A stretch of 64,000 nt of DNA from contig JAMOPO010000015.1 of assembly GCA_027064425.1 (NCBI GenBank), positions 160,001-224,000 on the forward strand, given 5' to 3'. The stretch is from Methanobacteriota archaeon. Its GTDB lineage: Archaea > JAADCQ01 > Methanopyri > Methanopyrales > Methanopyraceae. The notes under the pieces were generated by a model. It worked only from the letters and a program-made list of their open reading frames with translations, searched no databases and had not been told where the DNA came from. The translations under genes were made by a program, and so were the position numbers. This document shows positions 20,205 to 44,692 of the stretch, piece by piece. Every line of letters starts with the position of its first letter. The first letter of the stretch is position 1.

Positions 20205-20228
20205 ATCGTTACGAACCTCGTAACGATT
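20205..20228 (-). repeat. tRNA-trailer dyad element, copy 1 (AATCGTTACGAGGTTCGTAACGAT)
   Basis: Perfect 10-bp inverted repeat 5 nt after the tRNA-Gly CCA; homologous to three other copies. Confidence 0.85.
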
Positions 20229-20233
20229 CCGGG

Positions 20234-20309
20234 TGGTGCGGCCGCCGGGATTTGAACCCGGGCCACGGGCTCGGCAGGCCCGCGTCCTACCAGACTAGAC
20301 TGCGGCCGC
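20234..20309 (-). tRNA. tRNA-Gly(GCC), C at position 8, encoded CCA
   Basis: GCGGCCG-C-A...CGGGC CT GCC GA GCCCG...GGTTCAAATCC...ACCA cloverleaf. Confidence 0.97.
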
Positions 20310-20337
20310 GCCTCCAGGCACGCGCACTCCAACCCGA

Positions 20338-20997
20338 CTAAATATCTTTTTCGGCCTCCCGCAGCGCCGACTCGATCGCCGACTCCGCCTCCCCCACCAC
20401 CTCGAACCCGTGCCCCGGGAAGATCGACTCCACACCCACCGCCAGCAACCGCTCCAACGACTCGCACAGCCGCTCCCGATCCCCGCCCGGCAGATCCCAG
20501 CGACCCGGCCCGAACCCGAACACCGTATCCCCCGTGAACGCCACGTCCTCCACCAAAAAGCAGCAACTCCCCGGCGAGTGCCCCGGCGTGTGCAGCACCC
20601 GCACCTCCACCTCCCCCACCTCGATCACGTCCCCGTCCCGGAACGTGAACGACGGATCGAACGCCGGCATCGACTCCCCGAACAGGTACGCCGCCGACCT
20701 CCGATCATCCCCCTCCCGCAGCACCTCCGCCTCCGCCGGATGAATGCCCACCCTCCATCCCCGCTCCAGCGCCCGCGGTCCCGCCGCCGCGTGATCGTAG
20801 TGCGAGTGCGTCAGCACAACCCCCACGATCTCAACGTCACCGACCTCCCGAACCACCTCGCCCGTCGCCCCCACGTCCACCAGCAGCCCCTCCTCACCCG
20901 ACCGCAGCAGGTAGCAGTTGCAGTCCGGTGCCGGCGTCACTCCCTTACCGCCCACCCTGTACACCGAGAACTCCTCGCACGAGTACACCTCCAGCAA
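20338..20997 (-). CDS. Metallo-beta-lactamase fold hydrolase (glyoxalase II-like)
   Basis: THSHYDH, HTPGHSPG, FTGD, PGHG; TTG start 20997. Confidence 0.9.
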   Translation of the reverse strand: MLEVYSCEEFSVYRVGGKGVTPAPDCNCYLLRSGEEGLLVDVGATGEVVREVGDVEIVGVVLTHSHYDHAAAGPRALERGWRVGIHPAEAEVLREGDDRRSAAYLFGESMPAFDPSFTFRDGDVIEVGEVEVRVLHTPGHSPGSCCFLVEDVAFTGDTVFGFGPGRWDLPGGDRERLCESLERLLAVGVESIFPGHGFEVVGEAESAIESALREAEKDI

Positions 20998-21001
20998 GGG
21001 G

Positions 21002-21865
21002 GTGCCCCCCATCCGACCCGAGAGGCTCGCCCACCGCGCCGTCAAAAAAGCCCTCGAGCGCACCGTCTTCGACCCCGACGCCTGGATCCACGTGACCACC
21101 GTCTCCAACGACACCATCCACATTCACGTCCTCACCAACCAGCGCCGCAACGTCGAGGGCAAGGGCGGCCGCAACCGCCAGTACCTCGAGGGCTACGTCG
21201 AGGGCTACCTCGCCGCCCACGACCACCACGCCCGCGTCCACGTCAGCGTGATCAACGCCGGCCTCCGCGACGAGACCGAGGAGTTCCGCTACCTCCCCCT
21301 CGAGCGCGCCCTCAAGGAGGGCGTCCTCGACGAGAACCACCCCATCTGCCGAACCTGCCGCGAGCTCGACATCCCCTACGTCGTCCTCGGCGCCCGCGAG
21401 ATCGTCGGCCCCAACCCCGTCCTCCCCGAGCTCGTCCAGGAGACCGAGGGAGAGCGCGCCGTCGACCTCTTCACCGGCACCGGAGCCGCCGCACTCGCCG
21501 CCGCCCGCGCCGGTTACGACGAGATCTACGCCATCGACGCCAAGATTCACCCCGACGTGCGCGAGCGCCTCGAGAGCGAGGGCATCGAGGTAATCGAGAC
21601 CGACTTCCGCGACCTCGACCTCCGCGAGCTCGAGCCCATCGACCTCCTCACCGCCGACCCACCCTACGCCTCCGCCCTCGAGCTCCTCAAGAAGCTGGAG
21701 GAGGAGCGGCCCCGCGTCCGCACCGCCATCATCGCCCACGGCTTCACCGGCTGGGTCCGAGCCGTCCGCGAGATCCGCGGCTACCTCCTCGAGCTGTTCC
21801 GGGAGGTGGAGCCCGTCTCCAGGCACGGCCACGAGCTCAGCGTCTGCCGCGAGCTAAAGCGCTGA
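21002..21865 (+). CDS. SAM-dependent amino-methyltransferase (DPPY type) with an N-terminal extra domain
   Basis: AVDLFTGTGAAA motif I and ADPPY motif IV. Confidence 0.75.
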   Translation: MPPIRPERLAHRAVKKALERTVFDPDAWIHVTTVSNDTIHIHVLTNQRRNVEGKGGRNRQYLEGYVEGYLAAHDHHARVHVSVINAGLRDETEEFRYLPLERALKEGVLDENHPICRTCRELDIPYVVLGAREIVGPNPVLPELVQETEGERAVDLFTGTGAAALAAARAGYDEIYAIDAKIHPDVRERLESEGIEVIETDFRDLDLRELEPIDLLTADPPYASALELLKKLEEERPRVRTAIIAHGFTGWVRAVREIRGYLLELFREVEPVSRHGHELSVCRELKR

Positions 21866-23522
21866 CCGATACCACCCGATCGACCACCCGACCACCCGGC
21901 AGGCAGCGCTCACGCACGAACCGCTCGAACGAGCCCCCTCCTCCCCGGGACCGGTGCCGCAGGAACGCGCCCGCCCACAGCCCGCGCGCCCGCTTCCGCA
22001 GCGAGTACTCGAAGGGAACCCGGGTCAGGAACCGCTCCGCGCGCTCGCCACGGAGCTCCATACTGAAAACGAGCCGATTCTCACCTGATGACGTCTCGTA
22101 AGTCCCGCCTCTGGAGACCACCGCACGTGCGCCGACTACTTTGTTCAGCACCTCATTAACTCCCTCCAGGATGCAAGGAGGGTCCTCGAACGGTGATGCT
22201 TGGGCAATGCCCACCCTCACGTCCCCCCTGTCAGTCACCGACACCCATCCATCGGCACCGAAGAACCCGGCCAGGAACTCCAACGCGACCCTATCAGGGC
22301 CGCGGCGAATCCACTCGGCCACCTCAGTCTTACCCGCCTTCCGGCCCTCCGGCACCCCGAGCTCCCGCAGCAGCGCCGCGAACCCCTCCGAGTGCACGGC
22401 TACCTCCACCGCATCCCTATCCTCGTACTCGTACCTCACCGGCGAGAGGCCCAACGTCCCGAGGTCTCGCTCCAGCCAACGCAGTCCCGCCGGCTCCCCG
22501 TAGAACTTGACCACGTCCCGCTCCAAGTGACCGTCGCCCACCGCGTAGCCCACGATCCTCGCCAGCGCCGGGATCGCCGGATCCTCCCACCGCAGCGGCA
22601 GCAGATCCAGATCCCGCAGGAACTCGAGGGCACCGTCCGAGGCGTCAACGGCCGACAGCAACACACCCCGCCGATCCACCGCTGGGGGAACCTCCACCGG
22701 GTACAGCACGACCCGATCCCCCGGCTCGAGGTCACCCAACCGGCGCTCGCCCTCCGGGGTGAGAACGCGCTGACCCTCCGGGCCCGCGAGCTCGAACCCC
22801 AGCCTGGTGCCCACGACCACGCCGGCGCCCCGGTCTCCGGCGAGACTGGCCGCCCCGTTCCACCGAGCCGGCCACCGCGCCGACAGCCTCGCCTCCCGCC
22901 GAGCGAGCTCTTCCAGAACCAACCGGGCCCGCTCCTCCCGGGGATTGTAGCGGAACCGGACCCGCGAGAGGAACCGGAGCAGGTCGCGCCGACCGCGCAC
23001 CAGCACCTCCACCCGAGCGTACCGGTAGCGCCCGGAGGAGACCGGAGACAGCCCCACCACCTCCGCGCTCACGCCCAGCGAGTCGAGCAGCTTGAGGACG
23101 TCAAGCGCCAGGAAGATCAGGCCACCCTCCCGATCCGCCCGCGCCCGAAGCTCCAGCCGCACCGGCCGAGGACGACCTCCGTCGAACCCGAGCACCTCCC
23201 CGCGCACGCTGTAGAGCCCGGCCAGCAGCTCACGCGCCGCGCTCGGATCCTCGAACACCCAGCCCGGGATCCGACCCGTGTCCGGGGACGCACCGGCCAC
23301 GGCCAGCGCGCTCAGGAGGCGAGCGTCCCGTGACTCCACGCTCGTCCACCGCTTGCCCCGCCGCACTGATGGGCTCACGCCGAACCGGCGCAGGTCCTCG
23401 AGGAGCTTCTGCGCCCCCTCGTTGGGCACCGAGAGGCGCACGCGCGACCGGTCGCCCTCACGGAGCGTTCCCCTGCCCAGCAGCACTCCGAGTAGCCTGG
23501 CGAGGACGAGCTCCAACTCCAT
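21837..23522 (-). CDS. Free-standing intein-derived protein with two tandem LAGLIDADG endonuclease units and degenerate HINT remnants
   Basis: Motifs LLGVLLGRG/LLAGLYSVRG and IVGYAVGDG/FLAGFFGADG; block-B-like GFELAGPEGQRVLTPEG..DLEPGDRV; no extein, no N-terminal Cys, no C-terminal HN. Confidence 0.8.
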   Translation of the reverse strand: MELELVLARLLGVLLGRGTLREGDRSRVRLSVPNEGAQKLLEDLRRFGVSPSVRRGKRWTSVESRDARLLSALAVAGASPDTGRIPGWVFEDPSAARELLAGLYSVRGEVLGFDGGRPRPVRLELRARADREGGLIFLALDVLKLLDSLGVSAEVVGLSPVSSGRYRYARVEVLVRGRRDLLRFLSRVRFRYNPREERARLVLEELARREARLSARWPARWNGAASLAGDRGAGVVVGTRLGFELAGPEGQRVLTPEGERRLGDLEPGDRVVLYPVEVPPAVDRRGVLLSAVDASDGALEFLRDLDLLPLRWEDPAIPALARIVGYAVGDGHLERDVVKFYGEPAGLRWLERDLGTLGLSPVRYEYEDRDAVEVAVHSEGFAALLRELGVPEGRKAGKTEVAEWIRRGPDRVALEFLAGFFGADGWVSVTDRGDVRVGIAQASPFEDPPCILEGVNEVLNKVVGARAVVSRGGTYETSSGENRLVFSMELRGERAERFLTRVPFEYSLRKRARGLWAGAFLRHRSRGGGGSFERFVRERCLPGGRVVDRVVSVSALARGRR

Positions 23523-23610
23523 CGCGAGCACCTCTCGAGACCGCGTTCGGCCGGGCGTAAGCGGAGAACGATGCGGACTGACCGCCCCCTCCGGGCTGCG
23601 ATCCGGAAAC

Positions 23611-23634
23611 AACGTTTTGAGTCTCATAACGATT
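23611..23634 (-). repeat. tRNA-trailer dyad element, copy 2 (AATCGTTATGAGACTCAAAACGTT)
   Basis: 10 nt after the tRNA-Phe CCA; aligns without gaps to the other copies. Confidence 0.75.
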
Positions 23635-23644
23635 TGCGGCTTTT

Positions 23645-23753
23645 TGGTGCCGCGGCCGGGATTTGAACCCGGGCCCACCGGATGGCCGAGGCCCCGCGGA
23701 CGACCCGCGGGGCCTCTTCAGTCCGGCGCTCTCCCAGGCTGAGCTGCCGCGGC
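23645..23753 (-). tRNA. tRNA-Phe(GAA), C8, with a 32-nt BHB intron at 37/38 (23684-23715)
   Basis: Cloverleaf; BHB central helix CTGA/TCGG with AGA and CCA bulges; encoded CCA. Confidence 0.95.
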
Positions 23754-23848
23754 CTCGCATCGGGGCCGTCGGGGGCGGCCCGCTTTGCCTATTTAACTTT
23801 GTCGGCCGGTGGGGGCCGCGGTCGATCGGGGCGCGGGGGCGCGGGTCA

Positions 23849-24943
23849 TTGTACCTGACGAGGGAGGAGGAGCGGATCCTGGACGGCGAGGAGGGGGAGC
23901 TGAAGGCGCGGCTGTTGGAGGTGCTGGTGAAGCTGGGGGAGACGTTCGGCGCGGAGCGGTTGGTGAGGCCGGCGTCGGTGCACGTGTCGGGGGTGTCGTA
24001 CAAGACGATCGGGGATGCGGGGCTGCGGTTCCTGCGGCGGGTGGCGGAGGAGGGGCTGCGGGTGGAGGTGCCGACGAGCGTGAACCCGTGCGGGATCTGC
24101 CTGGAGGGTAACTTGAAGGTGGACGAGGGGTTCGAGCGGCGGCAGCGGGAGATCCTGGAGGCGCTGGAGTCGTTGGGCGCGGCGCCGGTGTACACCTGCG
24201 CGCCGTACCAGCAGGGGTTCCAGCCGTCGGTGGGTGACGTGCTGGCGTGGGGGGAGTCGTCGGCGGTCTTCGTGGCGAACACGTGGTTCGGGGCGCGGGC
24301 GAACCGGGAGGGGGCGCCGGCGACGGTGGCGGCGGCGGTCACGGGGCGGGTCCCGGAGTACGGGCTGCACCTGGAGGAGAACCGGGTGGCGGAGTACGAG
24401 GTGGTCGTGGAGTTCGAGCCGCGGAACGACTTCGAGTGGTCGGCGCTGGGGTACTGGCTGGGGGAGGCGGTGGACGGGATCCCGGTGCTGAGGCTGCCGG
24501 TGCGGCCGTCGCTGTCGAACGTGAAGTACCTGGGGGCGGCCGCGGCGGCGTCTGGGGCGCTGGCGATGGCGTACATCCCGGGGGTGACGCCGGAGGAGCC
24601 GCGGGTGGACGATCCGGAGCGGGTTGAGGTGGAGCGGGAGGACGTGCTCGATCTGGTGGAGTCGCGGTTCGGGAGGGAGCGGGAGGGGCTGGCGTTCACG
24701 GGGTGCCCGCACCGGGTGGACGGGGAGGCGTTCCGGTTCCGCGGGTGCGACTGCTACGTGTGCTGCCCGGCGAACGCGGTGTTCGAGGGCAGGGTGCTAC
24801 GGGGTACCTGCCCGGTGGTCGCGCCGATCGAGGAGGTGTGCGACGCGGTGTACACGGACTCGCTGAAGGCGGCGCACTACCTGGCGTCGCGGGTGGAGGT
24901 GAACGTGGGCCCGCTGGGGCCAGAAAACGATAAAAGTGAGTGA
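23849..24943 (+). CDS. Aconitase X large subunit (probable phosphomevalonate dehydratase large subunit)
   Basis: MYLTREEE, HVSGVSYKTIGDAG, TCAPY, AWGESSA, GCPH, TCPVV; TTG start. Confidence 0.88.
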   Translation: MYLTREEERILDGEEGELKARLLEVLVKLGETFGAERLVRPASVHVSGVSYKTIGDAGLRFLRRVAEEGLRVEVPTSVNPCGICLEGNLKVDEGFERRQREILEALESLGAAPVYTCAPYQQGFQPSVGDVLAWGESSAVFVANTWFGARANREGAPATVAAAVTGRVPEYGLHLEENRVAEYEVVVEFEPRNDFEWSALGYWLGEAVDGIPVLRLPVRPSLSNVKYLGAAAAASGALAMAYIPGVTPEEPRVDDPERVEVEREDVLDLVESRFGREREGLAFTGCPHRVDGEAFRFRGCDCYVCCPANAVFEGRVLRGTCPVVAPIEEVCDAVYTDSLKAAHYLASRVEVNVGPLGPENDKSE

Positions 24944-24966
24944 CCGCGGGGTAGGCACGGACGCGA

Positions 24967-25044
24967 GGGGCCGTGGGGTAGCCTGGTCTATCCTTCCGGC
25001 TTTGGGGGCCGGAGACCCCGGTTCAAATCCGGGCGGCCCCACCA
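24967..25044 (+). tRNA. tRNA-Pro(TGG), U8, encoded CCA
   Basis: GGGGCCG-T-G...CCGGC TT TGG GG GCCGG...GGTTCAAATCC...ACCA. Confidence 0.97.
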
Positions 25045-25052
25045 ATCCCGCG

Positions 25053-25076
25053 AATTGTTACGAGTTCCTTAACGAT
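25053..25076 (+). repeat. tRNA-trailer dyad element, copy 3 (AATTGTTACGAGTTCCTTAACGAT)
   Basis: 8 nt after the tRNA-Pro CCA. Confidence 0.85.
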
Positions 25077-25792
25077 CGCGCCGTGAGGCGTTGGGAGGGG
25101 CGGGAAAAGCCAGCACCCGCCGCCTCCACCCGAGCTTTCGGGGGGCGTCGAGGCGGGGTCGCCGATCGCCCCGTCGCCGAGGACGATGATCGTCGGGGCG
25201 ACGATGACCACCGTCACGGCGCTCTTCAGGCCGAGCTCCCCGAGCACGGAGAGCATAACCGACGCCCTGAGGCTGCGAGCCGTAGCGCGGTAGCGGCTAG
25301 CTTCGGGTTGGCGCGGATCCTGTGCGAGGTGGGCTCTAACCCGCCCAGCCGGGGGCATTGTAGCACCCGTCCTGACGCGGGCTGACCGGTGCGCGCGGCG
25401 CTCCGGGCGCGTCCCGTCGTGCTGGATCCGCCGACCGCCCGCGGACGCCGCGATCCGCACGTCACCTCCTTCTCGCAGGCTCCCAGGGCCGAGGGAGATC
25501 TCAGCGAGCGTGGTCCCGCGGTACGGCGGGGGCGACGATGCGACGGTGGGCCAGCTCGGACCGGTGATCCCGGCCGTGCCGGGCTCGCTCGCGGGCAGCC
25601 TCGCGGTCTCCTCGCCCTCAGCGTCGGCCGCGACCACGGTCAGCTCGAGTACCCGGAGCGCCTCACTAGGGTCCGGTTCGCGATTCAGGGTGCGGCTGCG
25701 GGGCGACGGTGACCTGGGTGAGCGGGAGGATGGCCGGGCCCGTGCCCGGCTCTCGTCCCTCCGGTTCGGCTGAGTGTTGGTGGAGCCAGCGG

Positions 25793-26632
25793 TCAGCCGG
25801 AGGCCAGCTTGGGCAGGCGGAGGATCCGGGTGGCTCGCGTCAGTTCGCGAATCCTCCACTTGGGCTTGCCGATGACGGCGCGCTGGGCCTCGCGCCACCT
25901 GTACGTGAGCCGCGCGCGCCAGGAGTCGGTCCGCTGGGCCTCGGAGCGGTAGTTGTCCTGCGGCGCCATCAGGATCGGCTTGTCCGGCTCCTCCAGTGGG
26001 TTCACCTCGGCCCACTCGGCGAGGGCCCTGAGGGCGTCGAGTCCGCGCTCGGTCACCGGGAACTCGATGGTCTCCTCGAACTTCTCGACGCGGAGTCGCG
26101 GCTCCTCCGGCGTGGTGGTCAGCCAGTCCTCGCCGGGGCAGACGTCGCGCCAGCGCATGCGAACGAGGTCCATGACGCTGACGCCGGACTCGACGATGGT
26201 CCGGAAGGGCGCCCACCAGGATGCGTCCTTGTTTTCTTTTGCCCACTCCTCGATCAAATCTACTTTACTTAAAATCTCCTTAGCCTCCTCCTCGGTCATC
26301 TCGGGGGAGGCCGGCGACCCGTACGCCTTCACGGTGAGCACGATCATGGGGTCGCGGTCCACGGCCTTCAGGGCCTTGGTGAAGGCGTACCAGCACAGCC
26401 GGCCCATCTCGTGGTCCAGCTCCATGTTCTCGACCTTGTCAACGAGCAGCCGGCGCAGCTGCCTGGCGACCTCGACGATCTCCTCGTTGTCGGCCTCCTC
26501 GAGCCACCGGAGCGGCTCCTCGTCGATGATCTCTGAGAGGAACTCGTCCAGCCTCCTCAGGGCGAACCGGTACGAGTGCCGGGTGTTATCGTTCTCCACG
26601 TCCAGCTGGTCGGCCAGGACCTCGAGGGACAT
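25793..26632 (-). CDS. Tyrosine recombinase/integrase-like protein, catalytic residues apparently lost
   Basis: SAM-like N-terminus (NTRHSYRFALRRL); box I-like TIVESGVSVMDLVRMRWRDV (Arg replaced by Ser); ends at WRIRELTR with no HxxR and no Tyr. Confidence 0.65.
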   Translation of the reverse strand: MSLEVLADQLDVENDNTRHSYRFALRRLDEFLSEIIDEEPLRWLEEADNEEIVEVARQLRRLLVDKVENMELDHEMGRLCWYAFTKALKAVDRDPMIVLTVKAYGSPASPEMTEEEAKEILSKVDLIEEWAKENKDASWWAPFRTIVESGVSVMDLVRMRWRDVCPGEDWLTTTPEEPRLRVEKFEETIEFPVTERGLDALRALAEWAEVNPLEEPDKPILMAPQDNYRSEAQRTDSWRARLTYRWREAQRAVIGKPKWRIRELTRATRILRLPKLASG

Positions 26633-26705
26633 TTAACCGGACCCCCGGGCGCGGGTCGACCGAGCTGGGAATGAGATATTTTTTCCGGGAAGGGCGAGCG
26701 GGGGG

Positions 26706-27596
26706 TTGAGCGTGGCTGAATCCGTGGAGCTATATCACGGGGATTTGTACTCGATAGCCTACAGGGCGGAGCTCGACAAGTTCCTGCCGGTGATCGGGCG
26801 GGCTAGGATCACGCCGGCGGAGCTGGCCCTGGCCGGCCTGCTGAGGAAGGGTTACAGGGTCGTGGTGAAGACGCTGGAGGGCAAGCAGCTGCCCGGCCGG
26901 CGGCGGATCGAGCTGGCCAGCGAGGTCAAGGACCTGACGGGCCGGTTCGTCGAGGAACTCGTCGAGTCGAAGCGGGCGCACCACCTGCGGCTCTCGGCCC
27001 GGTGCCTGGGGGCCCCGGTCACGCTGGAGTACGAGCCGGACTGGACGGTGAAGGTGGGTGGCCGGCACGAGGTCGACCCGGAGCGGCTGCACAAGAACCG
27101 GGCGCTGGTCAAGCTGCTGGAGTTCGTTTCAGAGCACGAGGTGGAGTTCCCGGACGTGGTCATCGACCTGGGGGCCGCCCCGGGCGGATGGTCTTCGTTC
27201 GCCGCGCAGGTCGCCGAGCACGTGATCTCGGTGGACCCGGCCCGGCTGGAGGAGCGGGTGAAGGAGCTGGAGAACGTGCACCATCTGCGCGTGACCATCC
27301 AGGAGTTCGCGCTCCCGGACATGGTGAGCGCGGCGTTCCCCGGTGAGAACGCGTGCCTGCTGTCCGACGTGTACTCGGGCGACCCGGAGGAGGACCTTTA
27401 CGGGGTGCTCCGCGTCCTGGAGAACGTGAACCTGAAGATCGAGTGGGCGCTGATCAAGGTCGCCCCCACGGACGAGGCGGAGGGCGTGGTCGAGTGGTTC
27501 CGGGAGGAGGCGGAGGACCTGGGGTTCGAGTCGGAGGAGGTGGAGCTCGAGTCGGCGAGCTCTAACGAGACCTTCCTCTACCTGACACGAGGGTAG
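26706..27596 (+). CDS. FtsJ/RlmM-like 2'-O-ribose RNA methyltransferase
   Basis: NRALVKLLE, VIDLGAAPGGWS, SVDP, LSD, K, SNE catalytic pattern. Confidence 0.8.
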   Translation: MSVAESVELYHGDLYSIAYRAELDKFLPVIGRARITPAELALAGLLRKGYRVVVKTLEGKQLPGRRRIELASEVKDLTGRFVEELVESKRAHHLRLSARCLGAPVTLEYEPDWTVKVGGRHEVDPERLHKNRALVKLLEFVSEHEVEFPDVVIDLGAAPGGWSSFAAQVAEHVISVDPARLEERVKELENVHHLRVTIQEFALPDMVSAAFPGENACLLSDVYSGDPEEDLYGVLRVLENVNLKIEWALIKVAPTDEAEGVVEWFREEAEDLGFESEEVELESASSNETFLYLTRG

Positions 27597-27936
27597 TCCC
27601 CTCGTGGCGGTACGGGGGCGAGCACACGCACAGGATGCGCATCGGCTCGGTGCCCTCGTTCCGGACCCAGTGCACGGTGCCGCGCGGGATCTCCACGCAG
27701 TCCTCGGGACCAACCTCCAGCGCCCGGTCGTCCAGGTAGACCGTGCCCCGACCCTCAAGGATCCAGTAGACCTCATCGAACTCGTGGTAATGAGGTCGCG
27801 TGGACTCCCCCGGTGGGATCACCGCCACCGCCAGGCTCATGCCCTTGATCTCCGAGAACTCGGGCCTCACGAGCTCGTACACCAGCGATCCGTCCAGGGT
27901 CTCGTAGGGTTCCACGTCGCGCGGGTTCCTGCGCAA
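27562..27936 (-). CDS. Cupin-domain protein
   Basis: PHYHEFDEVYWILEGRG, IPRGTVH, CSPPYRH. Confidence 0.85.
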   Translation of the reverse strand: MRRNPRDVEPYETLDGSLVYELVRPEFSEIKGMSLAVAVIPPGESTRPHYHEFDEVYWILEGRGTVYLDDRALEVGPEDCVEIPRGTVHWVRNEGTEPMRILCVCSPPYRHEGTTLVSGRGRSR

Positions 27937-27946
27937 GGACCCGGCC

Positions 27947-28003
27947 CCGATGACGAGACGGGTGAGCGGTGAGCGCGGCGATGATCGGTCCGTCCATTGC
28001 CGA
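27947..28003 (+). ncRNA. C/D box sRNA candidate
   Basis: CCGATGA..GTGA..GCGATGA..CCGA with flanking CCCC/GGGG stem, intergenic. Confidence 0.5.
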
Positions 28004-28100
28004 GGGGATGATCGGCGAAAGGGAGTTTCGTCATCCGCGGGGTCGGCGTCGGGAGCCCCTCCTCATTAACGCCTCCGAACCGCCGCGGCGCGCGGGTCGC

Positions 28101-32733: not shown

Positions 32734-35416
<2,683 letters not shown>

Positions 35417-35420
<4 letters not shown>

Positions 35421-36790: not shown

Positions 36791-36818
36791 GGGGATCATC
36801 CCCCGGAGGGAGGGCGCG

Positions 36819-37253: not shown

Positions 37254-40200
37254 ATCTCTTGAGGGAAACCTGCTCGGTGGATCCGAACAGCGTCCTCGCC
37301 TCCTCCTCCAGCAGTTCGACCTCCGAGGCGATGCTTCTCCACTCCTCGTCGGACTCACCGAACTCCTCCACGAGCCGCTTGGCGGGTTCCAGGTACTTCG
37401 TGGCGGTCGCCGGGTAGATGGTCAGGAGGACGTCACCGCCGCAGCGCGGGCACTTACCGCTGAGTGGTGGTACCTGGAACTTCGCGTTGCACTTGGAGCA
37501 TCGGAACTGCTGCCGGCCGAACTTGCGCAGGTTGCCCTTTATATCCGGTAGGAAGTGCGAGTCCAGGACGATCTTGGCGACGTCGGAGGCCTCGACGGCT
37601 CGGATCTTGCGGGCCAGCTCGAGCTGCTCCTCGAGCTTCTGCTCCATCTTCTCGAGCCGGGAGTATCGGGTCACGGTCGGGCCGAGGTCGATGGCCTCCG
37701 TGTCGTGGGTGAACTCGAGTCCGCGCGGGCAGTCCAGGTGGTTTTCCAGCCGGTCGACGAGGTCCTCCACCTCGCCCGGGTCGGCGAACTCCAGGGCCTT
37801 CCGGTACAGCTTCAGTGGGTAGTGGCTGCAGACGTCCATGTTCCAGACCTCGTCGTCTGTCTCGTGTGGGTTGACCACGACGGTGAGCACGAGCGGCGCG
37901 TCCATCAGACCGCCGCGCTTGTCCGGCAGGTAGATGCGGCTGAAGTTCAGCAGGACGTCCAGCAGGATCATGAACGCGTCCTCGTCGCCGTCGCAGTTCC
38001 GGCGCCGGGCGGCGTTGATGACCGGGTGGTTGTACCAGCAGTTGATGTCGGCGATGCCGACGATGCGGCCGACGACGCCGCAGGACGTGTGCGGCGCGAG
38101 CGTCACGATCAGGTGACCGATGAGGTCCTCCGGCCGCTCGACGCCGTACACGGGCTCGAGACCGTAGTACTTCTCCAGCAGCTCGTCGATGAACTGGCAG
38201 ACCTTTACGGCCCACTCGGCGGCCTTCCGCGGGAGGACCACGTCCTGCGGGTACAGCTCGACGACCTGATCCTCCGAGACCACGGGGTCGCCGTTCACGT
38301 CCCGCTCGAAGCCGAGGAGCCGGGCCTTGAGCGGCGTAAGCCCGATCTCCTTCAACCGCACGTGCGTGAGCGGGCAGTCGTTGCAGTCGAACCGCAGCGT
38401 GCCGTCCTTGAACACGTGCAGGTCACGCTTGGCCCGCAGCAGCCCCTTCTGCAGCGGCTCCGGCATCTTCAGCCGGCTCGTCATCCCCTTGACGCCCTTC
38501 AGGATGTCCGCCGTGCCACCCACGTCCTCCTCGGCCGCCCGCAGCAGCTTCTTGACGGGCAGCCGGGAGTAGGGGTCGTCGCCCTCCCCCACCTTCGCCC
38601 GCACGACCGGGTCGCACTCGTCGCAGTCGCACTCGTCCTCCGGCGCGTCACACCGGTTGCAGAACTGCTTCGTCTCCGAGCCGCACAGCGGGCAGACGCG
38701 GTACGGAACCAGCAGGTCGCACTCCGGGCAGATCCGGTAGCACACCTCGACCTCGTCCGACTCCTCCGAGTCCCCGCGGTAGAACTTCATGATATCTCGC
38801 TGGTTCCCACCCGCGATGCCGATCGGGAACAGCACGTGCGGCGGCGGGCTCATCTTCCGCTCGCGCGCCTTCTCCGGGCGTCCCATCCGGGCACCGATGC
38901 GCGTCGGCGCCTTCTCTCGGACCGGGAACCCGGCCAGCTTGGACACGTACCGGCACGTCTCGTCCCGGATGATCAGGTAGTCCAGCAGGTCGTCAAGGTC
39001 CTCGTCCGGCTCCCGGAACTCGCCCTCCTCGACCTCGTAACCCAGCTGCGCGGCCAGCGCTGACGCCCAGGGCTCCTCGATGACAACCTCCCCATCCTCC
39101 ACGCGGTGCGGTACGAGCAGATCCTCGAGGATCCCCTTCACGTCCTCCGGCGCCCGGATCTCCAGCTCGCCCCACTCCGAACCCCGGACCTCGATCGCCT
39201 CCCTCAGCTCGTCCACGTCCTCGGGCTCCACGTCGTGCCACAGGAACGTGTACTCCGGGTGGAACGGAACCCGGAACTCGCGGGAGAGCCGGATCGCGTC
39301 CTCGACTGAGACGTCCTTCGGGTCGGAGATGAGCGGCTGCACCTTCTTGCGCACGAGGCTGACTACGGACCGGGCGACCCGGGCGGGTCCGTTGATGTAC
39401 CCGTCCAAGCCCTTGCCCGAGCCCGACAGCCTGCTGGCCTCCTTGGGCAGCTCGCTCAGCGGCACATCCTTCAGCTTCTCGAACAGTCGCTTCGGCAGGT
39501 TCTCCTTCAGGACGTTGTACTTGACGACGTCCGGGACCTCCTCCACCCACCACTCCGGGCAGTAGGCGGGCGGCACGAGCGGGTGGTTGTTCTCGATGAA
39601 CTCGCCGACCGCGACGAGCATCTCGCCGAGGTCCAGGATCTCGTCGATCTCGTCCTTCTCGGCCAGCTCCTTAGCCTCCCGCGGGTCGTCGAGCCGCACG
39701 ACCGACCCGTCCTTCAGCCGCACGACCGGCGGCTCGATGTCGGTGACCGGAAGCACGCATGCGGCCTTACCGGGCCGCTCGATCTTCAGCTGGGTGCCGA
39801 TCACGATGAAGCCCTTGGTCACGTACATCAGCGACGGGTGGACGCCGACCGCGGCGAAGCCGGTGTTCCGCGCCCGACCCAGCCGAAGCCGGAAGCCACC
39901 CTTCGCGGACGGGTGCGAGAGCAGCGGGCGCCCGGCGACGAGATCACTCATGTACTTGTCATCGGGCTTGACGGCGGCCTCGTTTTCCTCCTCACCCTCT
40001 TCTTCGCCGTCCTCCTCTTCCTCCTTCTCGACGAGCTTCTCCAGGAACTCCCAGCCGTCCATCTCGTACTTCTCCACGCGCTTGAGCAGCTTGGGGGCCT
40101 TCTGGCAGATGCCCTCGCAGATGACCAGGAGCGCGCCACCGCGGAGCCGGTTGGGCAGGTGCGGGATGTCGCGGTGACCCTGGACCTCGACCTCTTCCGT

Positions 40201-40968
40201 CGGCTCACCATCGATCTCGATCGGGACGTGCCTCGCGACGATCTCGACCTCCTCCTCGGAGGGGTTATACTGGAAAGAACCTACCTTGTCCAGGTACGTC
40301 AGGACCTCCTCCACGTACCGGCCCACGAGGTCGTGCTCGAAGTCCTCCGGGTTGAACTCGGACAGGCCCGCCACCCGGCGAGCGTAGTCCGCAATCAGCG
40401 CGGACAGGGCCGCGGCGGTACCACCCGCCGCCCGGATCGGGCCCGCGTACTTAACCGCCAGGTAGCAGTCCTCCGGGTCGAGCTCCTTCCCACACTCCTC
40501 GCAGACCAGCTTGGGCTCGTCGTGCGGGGGCTCGGACTCATCCACCACCCGGTGCCCGGTTCCCCTCTCTCGGATCTCCACCGCAGCAATGCCCTCGAGC
40601 GGCGCCGACACGACGGCCTCGGTCATGATGGCGAGGCCGACTCGAACCGCGTAGTCCAGCCGCTTATGCAGGGGTAGGTCGCCCTTGACCTTGAGCTCTC
40701 CCTCCACGATCTCTCGAACGATCCTGAACGTGGCCTCCTCGCGGTCTCCCAGCTTCTCCTCGAGCTCCTTCAACCGATCGGCCACGTTCTCCACCTGCAG
40801 CAGACCCTCTACCCGCTCGCCGATTGAGGTGGCGAGCATCACCTCCGGCTCCGGCTTGGGGTCCTCACGCCTGCTTCGAGCCTCCTTGGCCACCTCGTAG
40901 AGCCCGGAGGCGACCTCCTCCAGGGTCTCCCAGTACCGCTCCAGCTCGCGCTCCGCGCGGGTGGTCAC
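37231..40968 (-). CDS. polC: DNA polymerase D large subunit DP2 (no intein)
   Basis: AGPIRAAGGT, GARMGRPEK, RRRNCDGDED, FRCSKC..CPRCGG. Confidence 0.97.
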   Translation of the reverse strand: MTTRAERELERYWETLEEVASGLYEVAKEARSRREDPKPEPEVMLATSIGERVEGLLQVENVADRLKELEEKLGDREEATFRIVREIVEGELKVKGDLPLHKRLDYAVRVGLAIMTEAVVSAPLEGIAAVEIRERGTGHRVVDESEPPHDEPKLVCEECGKELDPEDCYLAVKYAGPIRAAGGTAAALSALIADYARRVAGLSEFNPEDFEHDLVGRYVEEVLTYLDKVGSFQYNPSEEEVEIVARHVPIEIDGEPTEEVEVQGHRDIPHLPNRLRGGALLVICEGICQKAPKLLKRVEKYEMDGWEFLEKLVEKEEEEDGEEEGEEENEAAVKPDDKYMSDLVAGRPLLSHPSAKGGFRLRLGRARNTGFAAVGVHPSLMYVTKGFIVIGTQLKIERPGKAACVLPVTDIEPPVVRLKDGSVVRLDDPREAKELAEKDEIDEILDLGEMLVAVGEFIENNHPLVPPAYCPEWWVEEVPDVVKYNVLKENLPKRLFEKLKDVPLSELPKEASRLSGSGKGLDGYINGPARVARSVVSLVRKKVQPLISDPKDVSVEDAIRLSREFRVPFHPEYTFLWHDVEPEDVDELREAIEVRGSEWGELEIRAPEDVKGILEDLLVPHRVEDGEVVIEEPWASALAAQLGYEVEEGEFREPDEDLDDLLDYLIIRDETCRYVSKLAGFPVREKAPTRIGARMGRPEKARERKMSPPPHVLFPIGIAGGNQRDIMKFYRGDSEESDEVEVCYRICPECDLLVPYRVCPLCGSETKQFCNRCDAPEDECDCDECDPVVRAKVGEGDDPYSRLPVKKLLRAAEEDVGGTADILKGVKGMTSRLKMPEPLQKGLLRAKRDLHVFKDGTLRFDCNDCPLTHVRLKEIGLTPLKARLLGFERDVNGDPVVSEDQVVELYPQDVVLPRKAAEWAVKVCQFIDELLEKYYGLEPVYGVERPEDLIGHLIVTLAPHTSCGVVGRIVGIADINCWYNHPVINAARRRNCDGDEDAFMILLDVLLNFSRIYLPDKRGGLMDAPLVLTVVVNPHETDDEVWNMDVCSHYPLKLYRKALEFADPGEVEDLVDRLENHLDCPRGLEFTHDTEAIDLGPTVTRYSRLEKMEQKLEEQLELARKIRAVEASDVAKIVLDSHFLPDIKGNLRKFGRQQFRCSKCNAKFQVPPLSGKCPRCGGDVLLTIYPATATKYLEPAKRLVEEFGESDEEWRSIASEVELLEEEARTLFGSTEQVSLKRFIGETES

Positions 40969-40981
40969 GGGGACGGGACCC

Positions 40982-41368
40982 CTAGCGGTTCTCCTCTCGC
41001 CACTCACGATCGCGCGACTCGACCTTCAGGGGGACGCCACCCACGTCGATGACCTCCTCGGTTCGGTCCCCACCCTTCCGCCGCTCCTCCTTCTCCTCTT
41101 CAACTGGGAGCTCCTCGATCCGGTCCTTCAGGCTGCCCGACGACGAGCCGGTCGAGCCGGTCCCACCGGGGACCTGCAGCGTGTAAGTCTCGACTCGCAC
41201 GTAACCGCCCGGGAACCGGTACTCGCGGACCTCCCGCTGACCCTTCTCCTCCAGCTTCTTCATCTCCTCTCGAACCTTCTTCTCCATCTCTTTCTCGAGC
41301 TCCTTGAGCGACTCGTCAACCATCTTGAAGAGCATCCGGAACAGGTGGTCGAACAAGCGCCTCCTCAC
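40982..41368 (-). CDS. Hypothetical protein
   Basis: Lys/Glu-rich ORF with typical codon usage, co-oriented with its neighbours. Confidence 0.6.
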   Translation of the reverse strand: MRRRLFDHLFRMLFKMVDESLKELEKEMEKKVREEMKKLEEKGQREVREYRFPGGYVRVETYTLQVPGGTGSTGSSSGSLKDRIEELPVEEEKEERRKGGDRTEEVIDVGGVPLKVESRDREWREENR

Positions 41369-41371
41369 CCC

Positions 41372-42331
41372 CTACGTCGGGCACGCCGGGTTCCCACAGT
41401 CGGTGCAGAAGCGGCCCTTCCAGCACTCGTTCGGGCAGGGCACGCCGGCGGCGCTCGCGCACGCGCAGCACGCCGCGGCGAAGGGGGTCAGGCCCACCTC
41501 GCGGGCCAAGCTCAGGATCCGGTCCTTGAGGTCGCCCGTCCGGATGTACCGCTGCCTCCTTCCGTCCGGGATCTCGTCAGCCCTCTTAACAATTTCCGAG
41601 ACGTCGAACCCGGCCCGCCTCAGCCGCTCCACGATGGATCGATTGATCCGGAACCCTCCCACCACGACCCCGCGAGCGCCCGCGTCCTTGGCCTCCCGGA
41701 GCAGGTCCTCGATCTCCTCGGTGCTCACCAGTCCAGGTAGGATAGGCCTCAGGAACAGGTCGACCGTGACCCCCGCCTCCGCCAGCCGCTCAATGCTCTC
41801 CAACCGCTCCCTCGGGGTCGGAGCCTGGGGCTCCAGTCGCCGGGCCTTGTCCTCGTCGGGTGTGAGCACCGTGACCAGACCGTTGACCGGCAGGCTCAGC
41901 GAGGAAAGGTCGTTCGCCACGTCCTCCTCGACGCGCGACTTCGTCGAGAACTGGGTCGGGTTGCCGAGCCACCGGTCGAACGCCCGGAGGTACTCCAGCG
42001 TCTTCTCCTTGAGCTCGGGCAGGAACGGGTCCGTGACGCTGCCCACGGCGATGAAGGTGCCCTCCGGTCCGGGCTCGAACCGGCGGTTGTAGAGCAGGGC
42101 CAGCGCCATCTCCTCGCCGGACAACGGGTACGGGCGCGCCCGCTCGAACTTGAATCCCATCTCCGGGATGTAGCAGTAGACGCACCCGCGCGGGCAGCCA
42201 TGCCCCGGGTGCACGGTGATCCCGCAGGGCCTCGGTCGGCGCCGAGCGTGAGAGTCCCGCCGGGCTCTCCTGGCACCTTCCCGACCCACGCGGCGCTCCA
42301 GCTCCCGGATCAGCCCGCCCCTATCCACCAC
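41372..42331 (-). CDS. Radical SAM protein with Cys-rich C-terminus
   Basis: GCPRGCVYCY motif; C-terminal CCAC..CPNEC..CTDCGNPAC. Confidence 0.85.
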   Translation of the reverse strand: MVDRGGLIRELERRVGREGARRARRDSHARRRPRPCGITVHPGHGCPRGCVYCYIPEMGFKFERARPYPLSGEEMALALLYNRRFEPGPEGTFIAVGSVTDPFLPELKEKTLEYLRAFDRWLGNPTQFSTKSRVEEDVANDLSSLSLPVNGLVTVLTPDEDKARRLEPQAPTPRERLESIERLAEAGVTVDLFLRPILPGLVSTEEIEDLLREAKDAGARGVVVGGFRINRSIVERLRRAGFDVSEIVKRADEIPDGRRQRYIRTGDLKDRILSLAREVGLTPFAAACCACASAAGVPCPNECWKGRFCTDCGNPACPT

Positions 42332-43650
42332 AGGAGCGTCACCCACGGTCCGGTCACCCCCGCCAGGTACAGGGTTCCCAGGAGCCCCCTCCGCATGATT
42401 CTCTTCTCGTGCGACCGCACCGCCGCGGCGGCCACGGCCACGTTGTACGGGCAGGAGGCCGCCCCGCATACGGCCCCCGCGAGCGTGACCTCGGGGTGAG
42501 GGGTGCCCGAGGAGAACGTGGCCATAACCGCCGTCGTGCTGCCCATCACCATCTCGCCCACGAGTCCCACCGCAAAGGCCACCAGCGGCATCGAGGCGTA
42601 CCGGCGCAGGAGCTCAGGGAGCGGGGAGGCGGCGATCAGCGCGCCGAAGACCAGGCAGAGGACGACGGCGACCAGCTCCCGCCAGGAGCGCGACAGCACC
42701 GTCCTCACGTGGCCCGGTACCCGGGACCACTCCGGGGCCGCGTAGGCCAGCACGGCCGCCCACAGCACCATCCAGGGGCGCACGTGGCTCAGGTGCAGCG
42801 ACTTGACGGCCCCCAAGGTCAGGACCGCGGCGCCGTACACGAGCACGGCCCGCGCGGCCCTGGGATGCAGCTCCAAGGACAGCCCATCCTCCAGCAGCTT
42901 CAGGTACCATAGGAACCCAGCCACCGCCCCGAAGGTCAGGAGGGGGCCCGTCAGGACCGGCGCCCGCAGGGCGTACCCCACCGCGGCCGCGGCGAGAGTC
43001 ATCACGCCCACCGTGACCGGGAGGAGCCGTCCGGGACTGACGTCGACGGAGTGAGCCACGATCACCGGTAGGAGGGCCAGGGCGGGCAGCTCGCACAGCA
43101 GGACGCCGGAGGCCAGGTCGGCGGGGTCCCGACCGGTAATCTCCGACGCGACGAGCACCGGAACGCCGAAGGCCGCGAAGGCCCCGAACGGGGCGTGCCC
43201 CACCAGGGCCGACGCGGCCGCGCGCGGCTTGCTGACGCCCGCCTCGGTCAGCAGCGGTCCTACCAGCGTCGTGGGCGTGCCGAAGCTGGCGACGCTCTCC
43301 AGCGCTCCGGACCCGACGAGGGACGCACCCAGCAGGTACCGATCGCGGTGCTTCGAGTCCGGCTCCAGGGCGGCGAGCAACGACCTGAGGGCATCGTCCC
43401 GCCGCATCATCTCGACCAGGGTCAGGCTCGCCAGCACGACGAGGGCGATCTCCACGCCCCTGGCCGCAGCCTCGCCCACCTGCAACCAAGGTATCTGAGC
43501 CGTGCAGTGCGTGAATAGTGAGGCTAAAACCGTTAGGGCGATGTGAAGGGCCACGGCGAGCGCCACGGCCCTGAGGAGCTCCCACCCGGCCAGAGCGGTG
43601 ACCAGGAGGGTCAGCATCGATGCTAGCGCGACCGCCAGCGCGGGCTGCAA
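42310..43650 (-). CDS. L-lactate permease (LctP)-like membrane protein
   Basis: LESVASFGTP, FAAFGVPV, MVMGSTT motifs; many TMs. Confidence 0.65.
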   Translation of the reverse strand: MQPALAVALASMLTLLVTALAGWELLRAVALAVALHIALTVLASLFTHCTAQIPWLQVGEAAARGVEIALVVLASLTLVEMMRRDDALRSLLAALEPDSKHRDRYLLGASLVGSGALESVASFGTPTTLVGPLLTEAGVSKPRAAASALVGHAPFGAFAAFGVPVLVASEITGRDPADLASGVLLCELPALALLPVIVAHSVDVSPGRLLPVTVGVMTLAAAAVGYALRAPVLTGPLLTFGAVAGFLWYLKLLEDGLSLELHPRAARAVLVYGAAVLTLGAVKSLHLSHVRPWMVLWAAVLAYAAPEWSRVPGHVRTVLSRSWRELVAVVLCLVFGALIAASPLPELLRRYASMPLVAFAVGLVGEMVMGSTTAVMATFSSGTPHPEVTLAGAVCGAASCPYNVAVAAAAVRSHEKRIMRRGLLGTLYLAGVTGPWVTLLWWIGAG

Positions 43651-44564
43651 CGGTGACCACCCTCGCGGCGTTGATGGTCGCCGTCAGCGGCTCCCACGCC
43701 CTATCGGTCTGCATAACCTCGGACACCATTAACGGGTACCGAAGCGACGTCGCCTTCCTGCGGGAGCTCGCCACGAGACTGCTCGAAAAGGCGCGCGAGC
43801 ACGGGATTCGCATCGACCGCCTGTACGTCAGCTACAGCGGTCGGGGTCAGGAGTACGTGTTCTACGTCCCGAGGCCCGGAGAAATGGTTCTGATCGGCAG
43901 GTACCCTCGCGTTGGCGAGGTTCCGCGCGGGTTCTGGGTCTGCCGGCGGTACGGCCTGAACGCGCTCATCTGGATCGCGGGCCGGGACGGCTCCTCTTAC
44001 TACGAGCTCAAGCGGCAGCTGCTGCGGGGCGACTCCCCCGTTCGGTACGTCGTGTACGTGAACGTCTCGCCGCGCTACCTGGTCGCCGATGATCCCAGCA
44101 AACCCGGGTTTCTAAGCGTGCTTGGGTACTGGGACGGTCCTTGCAAGATCTGGTACCCTTACTACTATCTCCGCCTCTTGGGCGTCGAGGTCGTGAACGT
44201 GAAGGACGTGTGCCCCTGGTACTCCCGGTTCGTGGAGCTGAACAGCACCGTGCCGCACCTGGTGGACGCCATCCTGAGAGCGCTGCGCCGAGCACTCCAG
44301 CACGGGGTGATTAGCTCTCGGCCCCCGTGGGTCGTCGACGCGGTCGAGACCATCCTGGGCGAGCTCGAGGGCCCGGAGCCGCCGGCGATCGATCCGAGCC
44401 AGCTCTCGGCCGCCGTCAGGCTGATCGAGGCGAGCGAGGGAGGGCCGGCGGGCCGCCGCGACTGCGCCCGGAGCGCTCCGGTAAACGTTATATATGGGCT
44501 CCTTCTGGCGGGGATGCTGGCGGGCCGCCCCGGCGGTGTAGCCCGGTCAAGGGCCCGCGGGTGA
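43620..44564 (+). CDS. Secreted lineage-specific hypothetical protein
   Basis: N-terminal hydrophobic signal and hydrophobic C-terminus; 3' end overlaps tRNA-Glu. Confidence 0.55.
   Translation: MLARPPARAATVTTLAALMVAVSGSHALSVCITSDTINGYRSDVAFLRELATRLLEKAREHGIRIDRLYVSYSGRGQEYVFYVPRPGEMVLIGRYPRVGEVPRGFWVCRRYGLNALIWIAGRDGSSYYELKRQLLRGDSPVRYVVYVNVSPRYLVADDPSKPGFLSVLGYWDGPCKIWYPYYYLRLLGVEVVNVKDVCPWYSRFVELNSTVPHLVDAILRALRRALQHGVISSRPPWVVDAVETILGELEGPEPPAIDPSQLSAAVRLIEASEGGPAGRRDCARSAPVNVIYGLLLAGMLAGRPGGVARSRARG
44488..44495 (+). promoter_or_regulatory. TATA box of tRNA-Glu
   Basis: TTATATAT preceded by GTAAAC, about 32 nt upstream of the mature tRNA 5' end. Confidence 0.65.
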
Positions 44565-44661
44565 CCGCGGGCCCGCCGATATCATGCGGGACTTTCGAGG
44601 CCCGCGTCCCGCGGGCCGAGGATATCCCGCGACCCGGGTTCAAATCCCGGCCGGGGCACCA
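44527..44661 (+). tRNA. tRNA-Glu(TTC), C8, with two BHB introns (D-loop 44550-44580; anticodon 37/38 44598-44623)
   Basis: Removing both introns gives a canonical cloverleaf; BHB helices CGGT/GCCG and CTTT/GAGG with 3-nt bulges. Confidence 0.93.
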
Positions 44662-44668
44662 AACCCGG

Positions 44669-44692
44669 AATCGTTACGAGTTCATTAACGAT
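44669..44692 (+). repeat. tRNA-trailer dyad element, copy 4 (AATCGTTACGAGTTCATTAACGAT)
   Basis: 7 nt after the tRNA-Glu CCA. Confidence 0.85.

Follow-up and report, generated by a model that had tools for sequence, protein, structure and literature searches.

What does a short A+T-rich inverted repeat do immediately behind the tRNA genes of an archaeon whose genus, Methanopyrus, grows near 100°C and has a G+C content of 61–68%? The question was raised by a 64,000-nt stretch of DNA, hereafter called the window (G000:C15:160001-224000), where G000 is the genome that holds it (1.54 Mb in 57 contigs, 67.8% G+C) and C15 the contig. In this window a first-pass annotation had noticed a 24-bp dyad with the core ATCGTTA-N9-TAACGAT downstream of each of the four tRNA genes. 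That observation is correct and the phenomenon is far more general than was stated. The 23-bp dyad, (A)ATCGTTAYGA-N3-TCRTAACGAT, is most likely a genus-wide mark of the 3' boundaries of heavily transcribed units.

Distribution of the dyad in the genome and the genus

The analysis covered six Methanopyrus genomes (G000 to G005), among them G002, a complete genome of 1,694,969 bp with 61% G+C, and 15 other archaeal genomes for comparison. When G000 and G002 were scanned with a weight matrix built from the tRNA-linked copies, at a threshold of at least 14 bits, 108 and 109 loci were found, respectively, compared to 1 and 2 loci with the reversed matrix as control. Genes were called with a crude open reading frame (ORF) scorer (1369 and 1485 genes, approximately 81–83% coding). 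By these calls the G000 loci comprised 38 behind tRNA genes, 29 tandem, 14 convergent, 1 divergent, 8 inside a called ORF and 18 at contig edges, and those of G002 comprised 35, 37, 18, 6, 13 and 0, respectively, the classes 'inside ORF' and 'unassigned', the latter of 17–24 copies, being soft because of the scorer. Convergent copies outnumbered divergent ones (14 vs 1 and 18 vs 6; binomial p = 2e-4 and 3e-4), and divergent spacers hold more DNA. Copies away from tRNA genes made up 70 of 108 loci in G000 and 74 of 109 in G002. Since approximately two thirds of the roughly 108 genome copies follow rRNA or protein genes, the element is not the tRNA-specific one that had first been supposed. The enrichment that the first-pass annotation had proposed to look for was seen after tRNA genes in all six genomes of the genus and after rRNA genes in G000 and G002, and it extended to protein genes.

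For tRNA genes, a denominator independent of the dyad was obtained from a T-arm-to-CCA pattern, and a minimal dyad core, YGTT-N11-AAC, was tested behind it. The core followed 36/36 tRNA ends in G000, 26/29 in G001, 23/25 in G003, 23/26 in G004 and 29/31 in G005, and some of the misses in G001 and G003 to G005 fall at contig ends. The dyad was also found after 32 of 35 tRNAs called by ARAGORN in G000, where the three exceptions lack CCA and look like false calls, and after 28 of 29 in G002. The spacer from CCA to dyad position 1 was 6–11 nt in G000 (37 copies, 25 of them with 6 nt) and 6–9 nt in G002 (29 copies). The dyad stood 12, 84 and 134 nt past the 3' ends of the 5S, 16S and 23S rRNA genes in G000, and 8, 82 and 145 nt past them in G002, respectively. 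At 37 loci in G000 and 42 in G002 it lay within 100 nt past the stop codon of a called protein gene, with a median distance of 31–32 nt in the two genomes. The rRNA genes of G002 are unlinked (5S at 510731-510854, 16S at 516776-518289 and 23S at 585271-588370), and a tRNA-Val with its own dyad lies approximately 195 nt upstream of the 23S gene.

With at most one mismatch, the motif was present in all six genomes of the genus (24–96 matches each) and in none of the 15 other archaeal genomes; the reversed pattern gave 0 matches everywhere. Isolated half-sites were not over-represented, and the element is always a dyad. Between G000 and G002 there were 1065 reciprocal best hits with a median protein identity of 77%. 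A dyad was found within 100 nt past the G002 ortholog of 32 of the 45 dyad-linked G000 genes, compared to 26 of the 1020 other genes (odds ratio 94, p = 7e-35), and alignments showed half-sites that persist between the two genomes while the flanks and the 3-nt centre differ. These findings indicate that the dyad is under selection.

A few copies overlap or adjoin one another. Three half-sites 17 nt apart were seen at G000:C3:131778-131817, with the thermosome gene on one side and a small convergent gene on the other, and at C52:74060-74099, and two dyads 28 nt apart at G000:C11:390-440.

Dyads and tRNA genes of the window

A search of the window for ATCGTTA-N9-TAACGAT with at most three mismatches returned six matches compared to 0.22 expected, a number reached in 0 of 100 shuffles. 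Four of the six are the copies first reported, at 20205-20227 (0 mismatches), 23611-23633 (2), 25054-25076 (1) and 44670-44692 (0). Their coordinates and spacings were confirmed: the gap from CCA to the 24-mer is 5 nt for Gly, 10 nt for Phe, 8 nt for Pro and 7 nt for Glu, and all four copies lie in the orientation of the tRNA. The copies and the genes before them are as follows.

20205 to 20228, minus strand: dyad copy 1, AATCGTTACGAGGTTCGTAACGAT, 5 nt past the CCA of tRNA-Gly(GCC), 0 mismatches to the core
20234 to 20309, minus strand: tRNA-Gly(GCC) with encoded CCA and C at position 8 (ARAGORN; Rfam 64.4 bits)
23611 to 23634, minus strand: dyad copy 2, AATCGTTATGAGACTCAAAACGTT, 10 nt past the CCA of the intron-bearing tRNA, 2 mismatches, distal half degenerate
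23645 to 23753, minus strand: intron-bearing tRNA, CCA ending at 23645 (Rfam 44.9 bits over 23648-23753; T-arm-to-CCA match G000:C15:183645-183669)
24967 to 25044, plus strand: tRNA-Pro(UGG) with encoded CCA (ARAGORN; Rfam)
25053 to 25076, plus strand: dyad copy 3, AATTGTTACGAGTTCCTTAACGAT, 8 nt past CCA, 1 mismatch
44537 to 44661, plus strand: tRNA-Glu(UUC) with two introns and encoded CCA, start approximate and placed by eye (T-arm-to-CCA match G000:C15:204637-204661)
44669 to 44692, plus strand: dyad copy 4, AATCGTTACGAGTTCATTAACGAT, 7 nt past CCA, 0 mismatches

The Phe identity of the tRNA at 23645-23753 is putative, being the label of the first-pass annotation. The fourth tRNA was missed by default ARAGORN and by Rfam at the gathering score. 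It has the anticodon loop CU-UUC-GA, a T-arm, a CCA ending at 44661 and insertions in the D-loop region and after the anticodon, and it was therefore assigned as tRNA-Glu(UUC) with two introns. This agrees with the two-intron tRNA-Glu of M. kandleri as described in the available text of Su et al. 2013 (PMC3695527). With introns allowed, ARAGORN labels it 'Ala cgc' (C15:204498-204661), which looks like a mislabel. The dyad is of practical use in annotation, both to mark where transcription units end and to find intron-bearing tRNAs missed by gene finders, of which this tRNA-Glu is an example.

The earlier statement that the window holds no further copy stood in substance, the exceptions being two weak matches with three mismatches each, at 8147-8169 and 15301-15323. 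The match at 8147-8169 was rejected as a fifth copy and left uncounted because it sits within an ORF that reads as coding and is rich in charged residues. A look-alike is found at the orthologous place in G002 and is probably kept by the protein.

Among CCA-ending tRNAs called by ARAGORN, C was found at position 8 in 27 of 31 in G000 and in 18 of 22 in G002, and T in 4 in each genome. C8 is a published hallmark of M. kandleri, in which base 8 undergoes C-to-U editing, according to the available text of Su et al. 2013 (PMC3695527). A tRNA-His with near-identical flanks occurs at G000:C3:10741, C16:2594 and C18:379, and a tRNA-Ser UGA with near-identical flanks at G000:C29:41813 and C32:283. These repeated genes on contigs, some of them very short, suggest assembly redundancy or strain variants in the draft G000.

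Protein genes followed by the dyad and copies inside operons

Pfam searches were made with 20 of the 45 dyad-linked G000 proteins, a non-random sample in which the first ten were picked because they had been recognized: McrB, McrA, thermosome, AtpA (A-ATPase subunit A), L7Ae, S15, L32e, S10, EF-1beta and P0. The other ten comprised PdxS, a rubrerythrin, topoisomerase VI-A, NrdD, DHQ synthase II and five orphans without a Pfam family. Although biased by choice, this sample shows the dyad behind many of the genes that the cell expresses most. The five orphans (G000:C15:41536-42882, C27:47037-49715, C52:143035-144087, C52:203597-204505 and C11:469-2574) share a signal-peptide-like start and a C-terminal hydrophobic stretch followed by RRR(R/F). 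G000 encodes 16 proteins of this kind, 5 of them followed by the dyad, and the orphans are likely abundant surface proteins that share a C-terminal sorting tail.

In both genomes the mcr cluster (G000:C26:18480-24011 and G002:610854-616410) consists of a promoter-like box, mcrB, a dyad, mcrD, mcrC, a promoter-like box GAAAYCCCTTTAAAA approximately 35 nt upstream of the mcrG start, mcrG, mcrA and a second dyad. From this layout the cluster seems to be split into two units. With most transcripts ending at the dyad behind mcrB and only a minority reaching mcrD and mcrC, a second promoter before mcrG would make sense. A dyad also stands between the L7Ae gene and the next gene. The mcrB and L7Ae cases fit an attenuator, and they fit equally well a 3' hairpin-type stabilizer of the upstream RNA. 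An ORF of 193 amino acids past atpA is bracketed by two dyads (G000:C3:145632-146269 and G002:981464-982106), and the first of these has the centre GGGGGT, at the place expected of a ribosome-binding site.

A matrix trained on tRNA promoters gave 0–1 matches after dyads, compared to 3/71 and 12/120 in long control spacers. Because this matrix barely detects the promoters of protein genes, operon-internal and terminal copies were inseparable by it and spacer lengths alone were used. The dyad itself was considered as a promoter and rejected, as the tRNA promoters, GAAA-N2-3-TTTAWA approximately 32–45 nt upstream, bear no likeness to it beyond chance. One clear C/D-box small RNA is flanked by two dyads (G000:C2). 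A strict C/D regular expression found 1 further copy in G000 and 2 in G002, compared to 9–10 matches per 2000 random positions, and no general claim is made.

Absence of oligo-T runs and the known termination factors

The first-pass annotation had noted the lack of oligo-T terminators at its tRNA loci, and this was borne out throughout G000, where no run of five T (T5 run) occurred 12–42 nt past any GGTTCRAATCC T-arm (0 matches, 36 T-arm sites). Over the six Methanopyrus genomes there were 0 T5 runs in the same interval at 194 T-arm sites, compared to matches in 13 of the 15 other archaeal genomes, counts that include overlapping runs and hence are not site counts. A T5 run was found within 60 nt past the stop codon of only 35 of 1368 G000 genes, and within 80 nt of only 1 of 42 dyad-linked protein genes. 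The dyad would thus take the place of the usual oligo-T terminator at tRNA genes, and it provides approximately 100 natural sites as a testable handle on termination and 3'-end formation where the standard archaeal signal is missing.

The current account of archaeal termination rests on U-tracts that are read together with aCPSF1/FttA (Li et al. 2021, eLife, PMC8716108). An aCPSF1 ortholog was found in both G000 and G002 (909 and 901 bits; cut-off 580), and an RNase Z-like gene was present with 187 bits, below the equivalog cut-off of 293. The dyad resembles the oligo-T/aCPSF1 system, as set out in the available text of PMC8716108, in standing at the 3' end of transcription units that include stable RNA genes. 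The signal there is a U-tract, whereas in Methanopyrus it is a sequence-specific inverted repeat and no T5 run follows the tRNAs of the genus.

The available text of Su et al. 2013 (PMC3695527) describes M. kandleri tRNA precursors with 5' leaders, introns and unedited C8, but no 3'-trailer class, and it places tRNA 3' processing first. These precursor classes fit transcripts whose ends lie on the CCA or very close to it, whether made by termination or by rapid cleavage. Four size-fractionated RNA runs from 2013 contain 68–69% of the words from a G002 stretch.

Half-sites in DNA compared to a hairpin in RNA

In 38 tRNA-linked copies, G at position 4, T at 5 and 6, A at 18 and 19 and C at 20 were invariant. 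When tRNA-linked and other copies of G000 and G002 were treated as four sets, the number of Watson-Crick pairs equalled the expectation for independent columns (P = 0.18, 0.20, 0.30 and 0.85). Over 217 copies, the variable pairs 2/22, 8/16 and 10/14 showed no covariation, in a test of low power because most paired columns are nearly invariant. G.U pairs on the sense strand had no advantage over A.C pairs in these sets (17 vs 23, 15 vs 17, 20 vs 34 and 33 vs 32, respectively). On average the arms could pair at 7–8 of 10 positions, only because both halves keep the same letters, and in G002 the inner pairs 9/15 and 10/14 were Watson-Crick in just 17 and 13 of 35 tRNA-linked copies. The spacer had no stable-loop signature. 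With ViennaRNA under standard salt parameters, the unfolded state was predicted for 74–97% of the copies at 85°C and for 100% of them at 98°C, in keeping with the earlier expectation of a weak hairpin at hyperthermophilic temperatures, although the very high intracellular salt in Methanopyrus could stabilize pairing.

Conservation of specific bases in an inverted repeat that bears no signature of pairing favours a symmetric dimer on duplex DNA, and this is the main reason for placing the reader at the DNA level. The first-pass suggestion of a DNA site for a dimeric protein was strengthened to this extent, as the missing covariation and the missing G.U advantage favour two half-sites; the mechanism beyond that point is proposed from sequence. 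A Rho-independent terminator has a stable G+C-rich stem with compensatory changes and a U-tract. The dyad is not of this kind, since its arms are A+T-rich and do not covary, it is predicted to be unfolded at 85–98°C, and no T run follows it.

Proposed mechanism

The dyad is read here, with a probability of roughly 0.45, as a general, leaky 3'-end signal for transcription units that would be recognized as two half-sites, probably by a dimeric DNA-binding factor. In this scheme the two conserved half-sites on double-stranded DNA would be bound by a putative dimeric, Methanopyrus-specific factor, which would stop or slow RNA polymerase and make the dyad a leaky, bidirectional terminator or attenuator, possibly aided by the C/U-rich tract immediately upstream and by the general factor aCPSF1. 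The signal must be leaky, given that some copies sit within operons, such as that between mcrB and mcrD. We infer, then, a mechanism of termination that would be protein dependent, leaky and bidirectional. Of the options listed in the first-pass annotation, that of a terminator or insulator comes closest, as it fits the gene-end position and the missing oligo-T, though its restriction to tRNA genes was wrong.

Several observations weigh against this reading, together with the soft gene-call classes and the low power of the covariation test mentioned above. The tRNA-proximal half, as the first-pass annotation had stated, is the better conserved one (better in 19, worse in 1 and tied in 18 of 38 G000 copies, and better in 27 and worse in 2 in G002). 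On the sense strand, the 20 nt before protein-linked copies are rich in C and poor in G (C 0.50 and G 0.23 in G000, C 0.44 and G 0.18 in G002). The two features have a polarity set by transcription, and they could equally indicate reading at the RNA level. Tandem copies lie at most 39 nt before the next called start in 9 of 23 cases in G000 and 12 of 24 in G002, and the dyad after atpA, identical in the two genomes, has as its last three letters the GTG start of the next ORF. With so short a gap or such an overlap, a full stop is impossible at those sites. Moreover, dyad and T5 run alike are missing from most genes, so that terminators other than the dyad must exist. The distance to the tRNA is a further difficulty, as the encoded CCA ends just 6–9 nt before dyad position 1, which is tight for a simple roadblock. 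Known roadblocks stall polymerase approximately 10–15 nt upstream, so that polymerase would have to invade the proximal half-site or the RNA ends would need repair.

A stronger version of this mechanism is doubtful. It states that the U-tract terminator has been replaced by the palindrome at all stable-RNA genes and at the most expressed protein genes, and that a dedicated dimeric protein halts polymerase in either direction. If true, Archaea would have their first termination or insulator factor that binds DNA in a sequence-specific manner, a functional counterpart of Reb1, TTF-I and mTERF, and the replacement factor would double as an operon attenuator (mcrB/mcrD and L7Ae/next gene).

Reb1/Nsi1 and TTF-I at rRNA genes and mTERF in mitochondria are DNA-bound protein terminators that work with an upstream pyrimidine-rich release tract, and some of them are fork barriers. 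The dyad would be like them in being a site 3' of heavily transcribed stable-RNA genes, and a protein bound to it would be in keeping with its conserved half-sites, which do not covary. It differs in that their sites are not palindromes, its distance from the CCA is below the usual stall distance, and its reader is putative. In Haloferax volcanii, an AGATC downstream motif and hairpin terminators have been described (Berkemer et al. 2020, RNA Biol, PMC7237163). According to the available text of that paper, AGATC is also a leaky, non-oligo-T termination signal of a G+C-rich archaeon and acts from the DNA downstream of the RNA end, but it is a 5-mer located mainly inside coding regions and has no dyad, whereas the palindrome of Methanopyrus has 23 bp and stands at gene ends.

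Alternative explanations

The alternative that survives best, although unlikely, is that the dyad acts in RNA, as a hairpin or as a sequence bound by a protein or nuclease that cuts the precursor, and so punctuates tRNA, rRNA and mRNA units, or protects the upstream RNA from 3'-to-5' decay. It may be likened to bacterial repetitive extragenic palindromic (REP) and terminator hairpins and to the histone mRNA stem-loop. The copies inside operons would then make sense as following the cistron needed in larger amounts (mcrB/mcrD, L7Ae/next gene and atpA/small ORF), and the C/D-box small RNA flanked by two copies, the better conservation of the transcript-proximal half at tRNAs, the strand-specific C-rich, G-poor tract and the 7–8 of 10 pairable arm positions all agree with it. 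So do the presence of an RNase Z-like gene and of aCPSF1 and the early tRNA 3' processing in the available text of Su et al. (PMC3695527). What argues against a hairpin is that 217 copies show no covariation, that A.C mismatches on the sense strand are no rarer than G.U, that the inner pairs often fail in G002, that the spacer has no stable-loop signature and that the copies are predicted to be unfolded near growth temperature; without a hairpin, an inverted repeat is meaningless to a reader of single-stranded RNA.

Quite unlikely is a DNA site with a task other than termination, such as topoisomerase loading, a replication-fork barrier, a chromatin boundary or gene-end-to-promoter looping. 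The topoisomerase option is modelled on gyrase at REP/BIME (bacterial interspersed mosaic element) sites of E. coli and would consist in the removal of supercoils ahead of heavy transcription. Such a site shares the DNA-level evidence with the proposed terminator, and copies inside operons need not block polymerase; the limitation of the element to the most heavily transcribed units and convergent spacers, and to one genus, is also in its favour. However, the short distances to the CCA (6–9 nt) and to the 5S end (8–12 nt) suggest a connection with the RNA end itself, tRNA genes at which oligo-T has been replaced need a terminator of some kind, transcripts lost at the dyad are the best explanation of the second promoter before mcrG, and the evidence points to no particular enzyme.

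A tRNA-specific 3' maturation signal is the published proposal. The entry of Tong, Schliekelman and Mrazek 2017 (PMC5217627) for M. kandleri AV19 gives the motif CGTTA(N)9TAACG, tRNA downstream. In the available text of that paper the motif lies approximately 10 bp past tRNA genes, roughly half the tRNA genes show similar patterns, and the motif is called palindromic and M. kandleri-specific, with the speculation that it is the target of a 3' maturation enzyme. This report overturns the first-pass remark that no such archaeal element had been described. The published pattern is exact in window copies 1 and 4, whereas copy 3 has the proximal half TGTTA and copy 2 the distal half AAACG. Pattern, position approximately 10 bp after tRNAs, palindromic logo and M. 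kandleri-specific report are the same as for the dyad. The motif was tied there, in the available text, to tRNA genes only, with a maturation-enzyme site proposed; here it follows nearly all tRNAs in six genomes, approximately two thirds of its copies follow rRNA or protein genes, and its copies persist at orthologous gene ends.

As the sole function of the dyad, tRNA maturation is therefore very improbable, and the published reading of the motif as a tRNA maturation signal is corrected. The copy at every tRNA gene at a near-fixed distance and the better conserved proximal half speak for it, as does the CCA encoded by all tRNA genes. CCA hinders the usual RNase Z cut in many organisms. It is contradicted by the copies away from tRNAs, which follow rRNA and protein genes and are conserved there; the pre-tRNA 3'-processing signal offered by the first-pass annotation leaves the same copies unexplained.

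Literature searches gave no paper on the motif besides PMC5217627. The available text of Su et al. 2013 (PMC3695527) is silent on it, and the word 'trailer' occurs 0 times there. As far as these searches reach, it is new that tRNA genes, rRNA genes and top-expressed protein genes share the dyad as their end mark, that it is conserved across the genus at orthologous positions and that it stands where other archaea have oligo-T. Its apparent behaviour as the DNA site of a dimer rather than as a hairpin is likewise new.

A selfish or neutral repeat (like REP, miniature inverted-repeat transposable elements or uptake sequences) gathering harmlessly in gene-end spacers is barely credible: approximately 100 short extragenic palindromes, mostly at gene 3' ends, do resemble bacterial REPs, but retention at orthologous places in species with approximately 77% median protein identity contradicts it, all tRNA genes are occupied at a fixed distance, the copies are single 23-mers without terminal repeats or cargo, isolated half-sites are not enriched, and no Y1/RAYT (REP-associated tyrosine) transposase (PF01797) was found in the 5/5 genomes searched, with a control search positive in 6 of 14 known genomes. 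The uptake-sequence-like form was rejected on the lack of enriched isolated half-sites. The recombinase core site suggested by the first-pass annotation, like a mobile repeat in general, was discarded, because one or a few sites flanking a mobile segment are expected and the dyad has approximately 108 copies per genome, held at orthologous gene ends in two species.

REP/BIME elements are short palindromes outside genes, located at gene 3' ends and within operons, where they stabilize upstream mRNA, attenuate transcription and bind gyrase. The dyad resembles them in its many extragenic palindromic copies at gene ends (approximately 108) and differs in that no RAYT transposase was found with it, that it lacks hairpin covariation and that it has a fixed place after every tRNA gene.

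Other repeated boxes near gene ends

A C-rich box such as CCCCCTCACGCCCC was seen within the first 40 nt past many G000 stop codons (for example at C15:42883-42916). The hexamer ACGCCC occurred within 40 nt past the stop codon in 69 of 1368 G000 genes (approximately 0.026 expected per window of that length) and in 15 of 42 dyad-linked genes. The signal was weaker in G002, with 45 of 1485 stop codons and 6 of 53 dyad-linked genes.

A 25-nt box, CAATCAACTTATGCGATGAGCTCGC, was found six times with at most five changes on small contigs of G000 (C2:620, C2:2908, C2:3229, C13:2168, C46:46 and C48:806), compared to 0 copies in G002. A dyad lies 58–61 nt past the box in five of the six cases. The box may represent a small RNA gene present in several copies, or belong to a mobile or CRISPR-linked unit.

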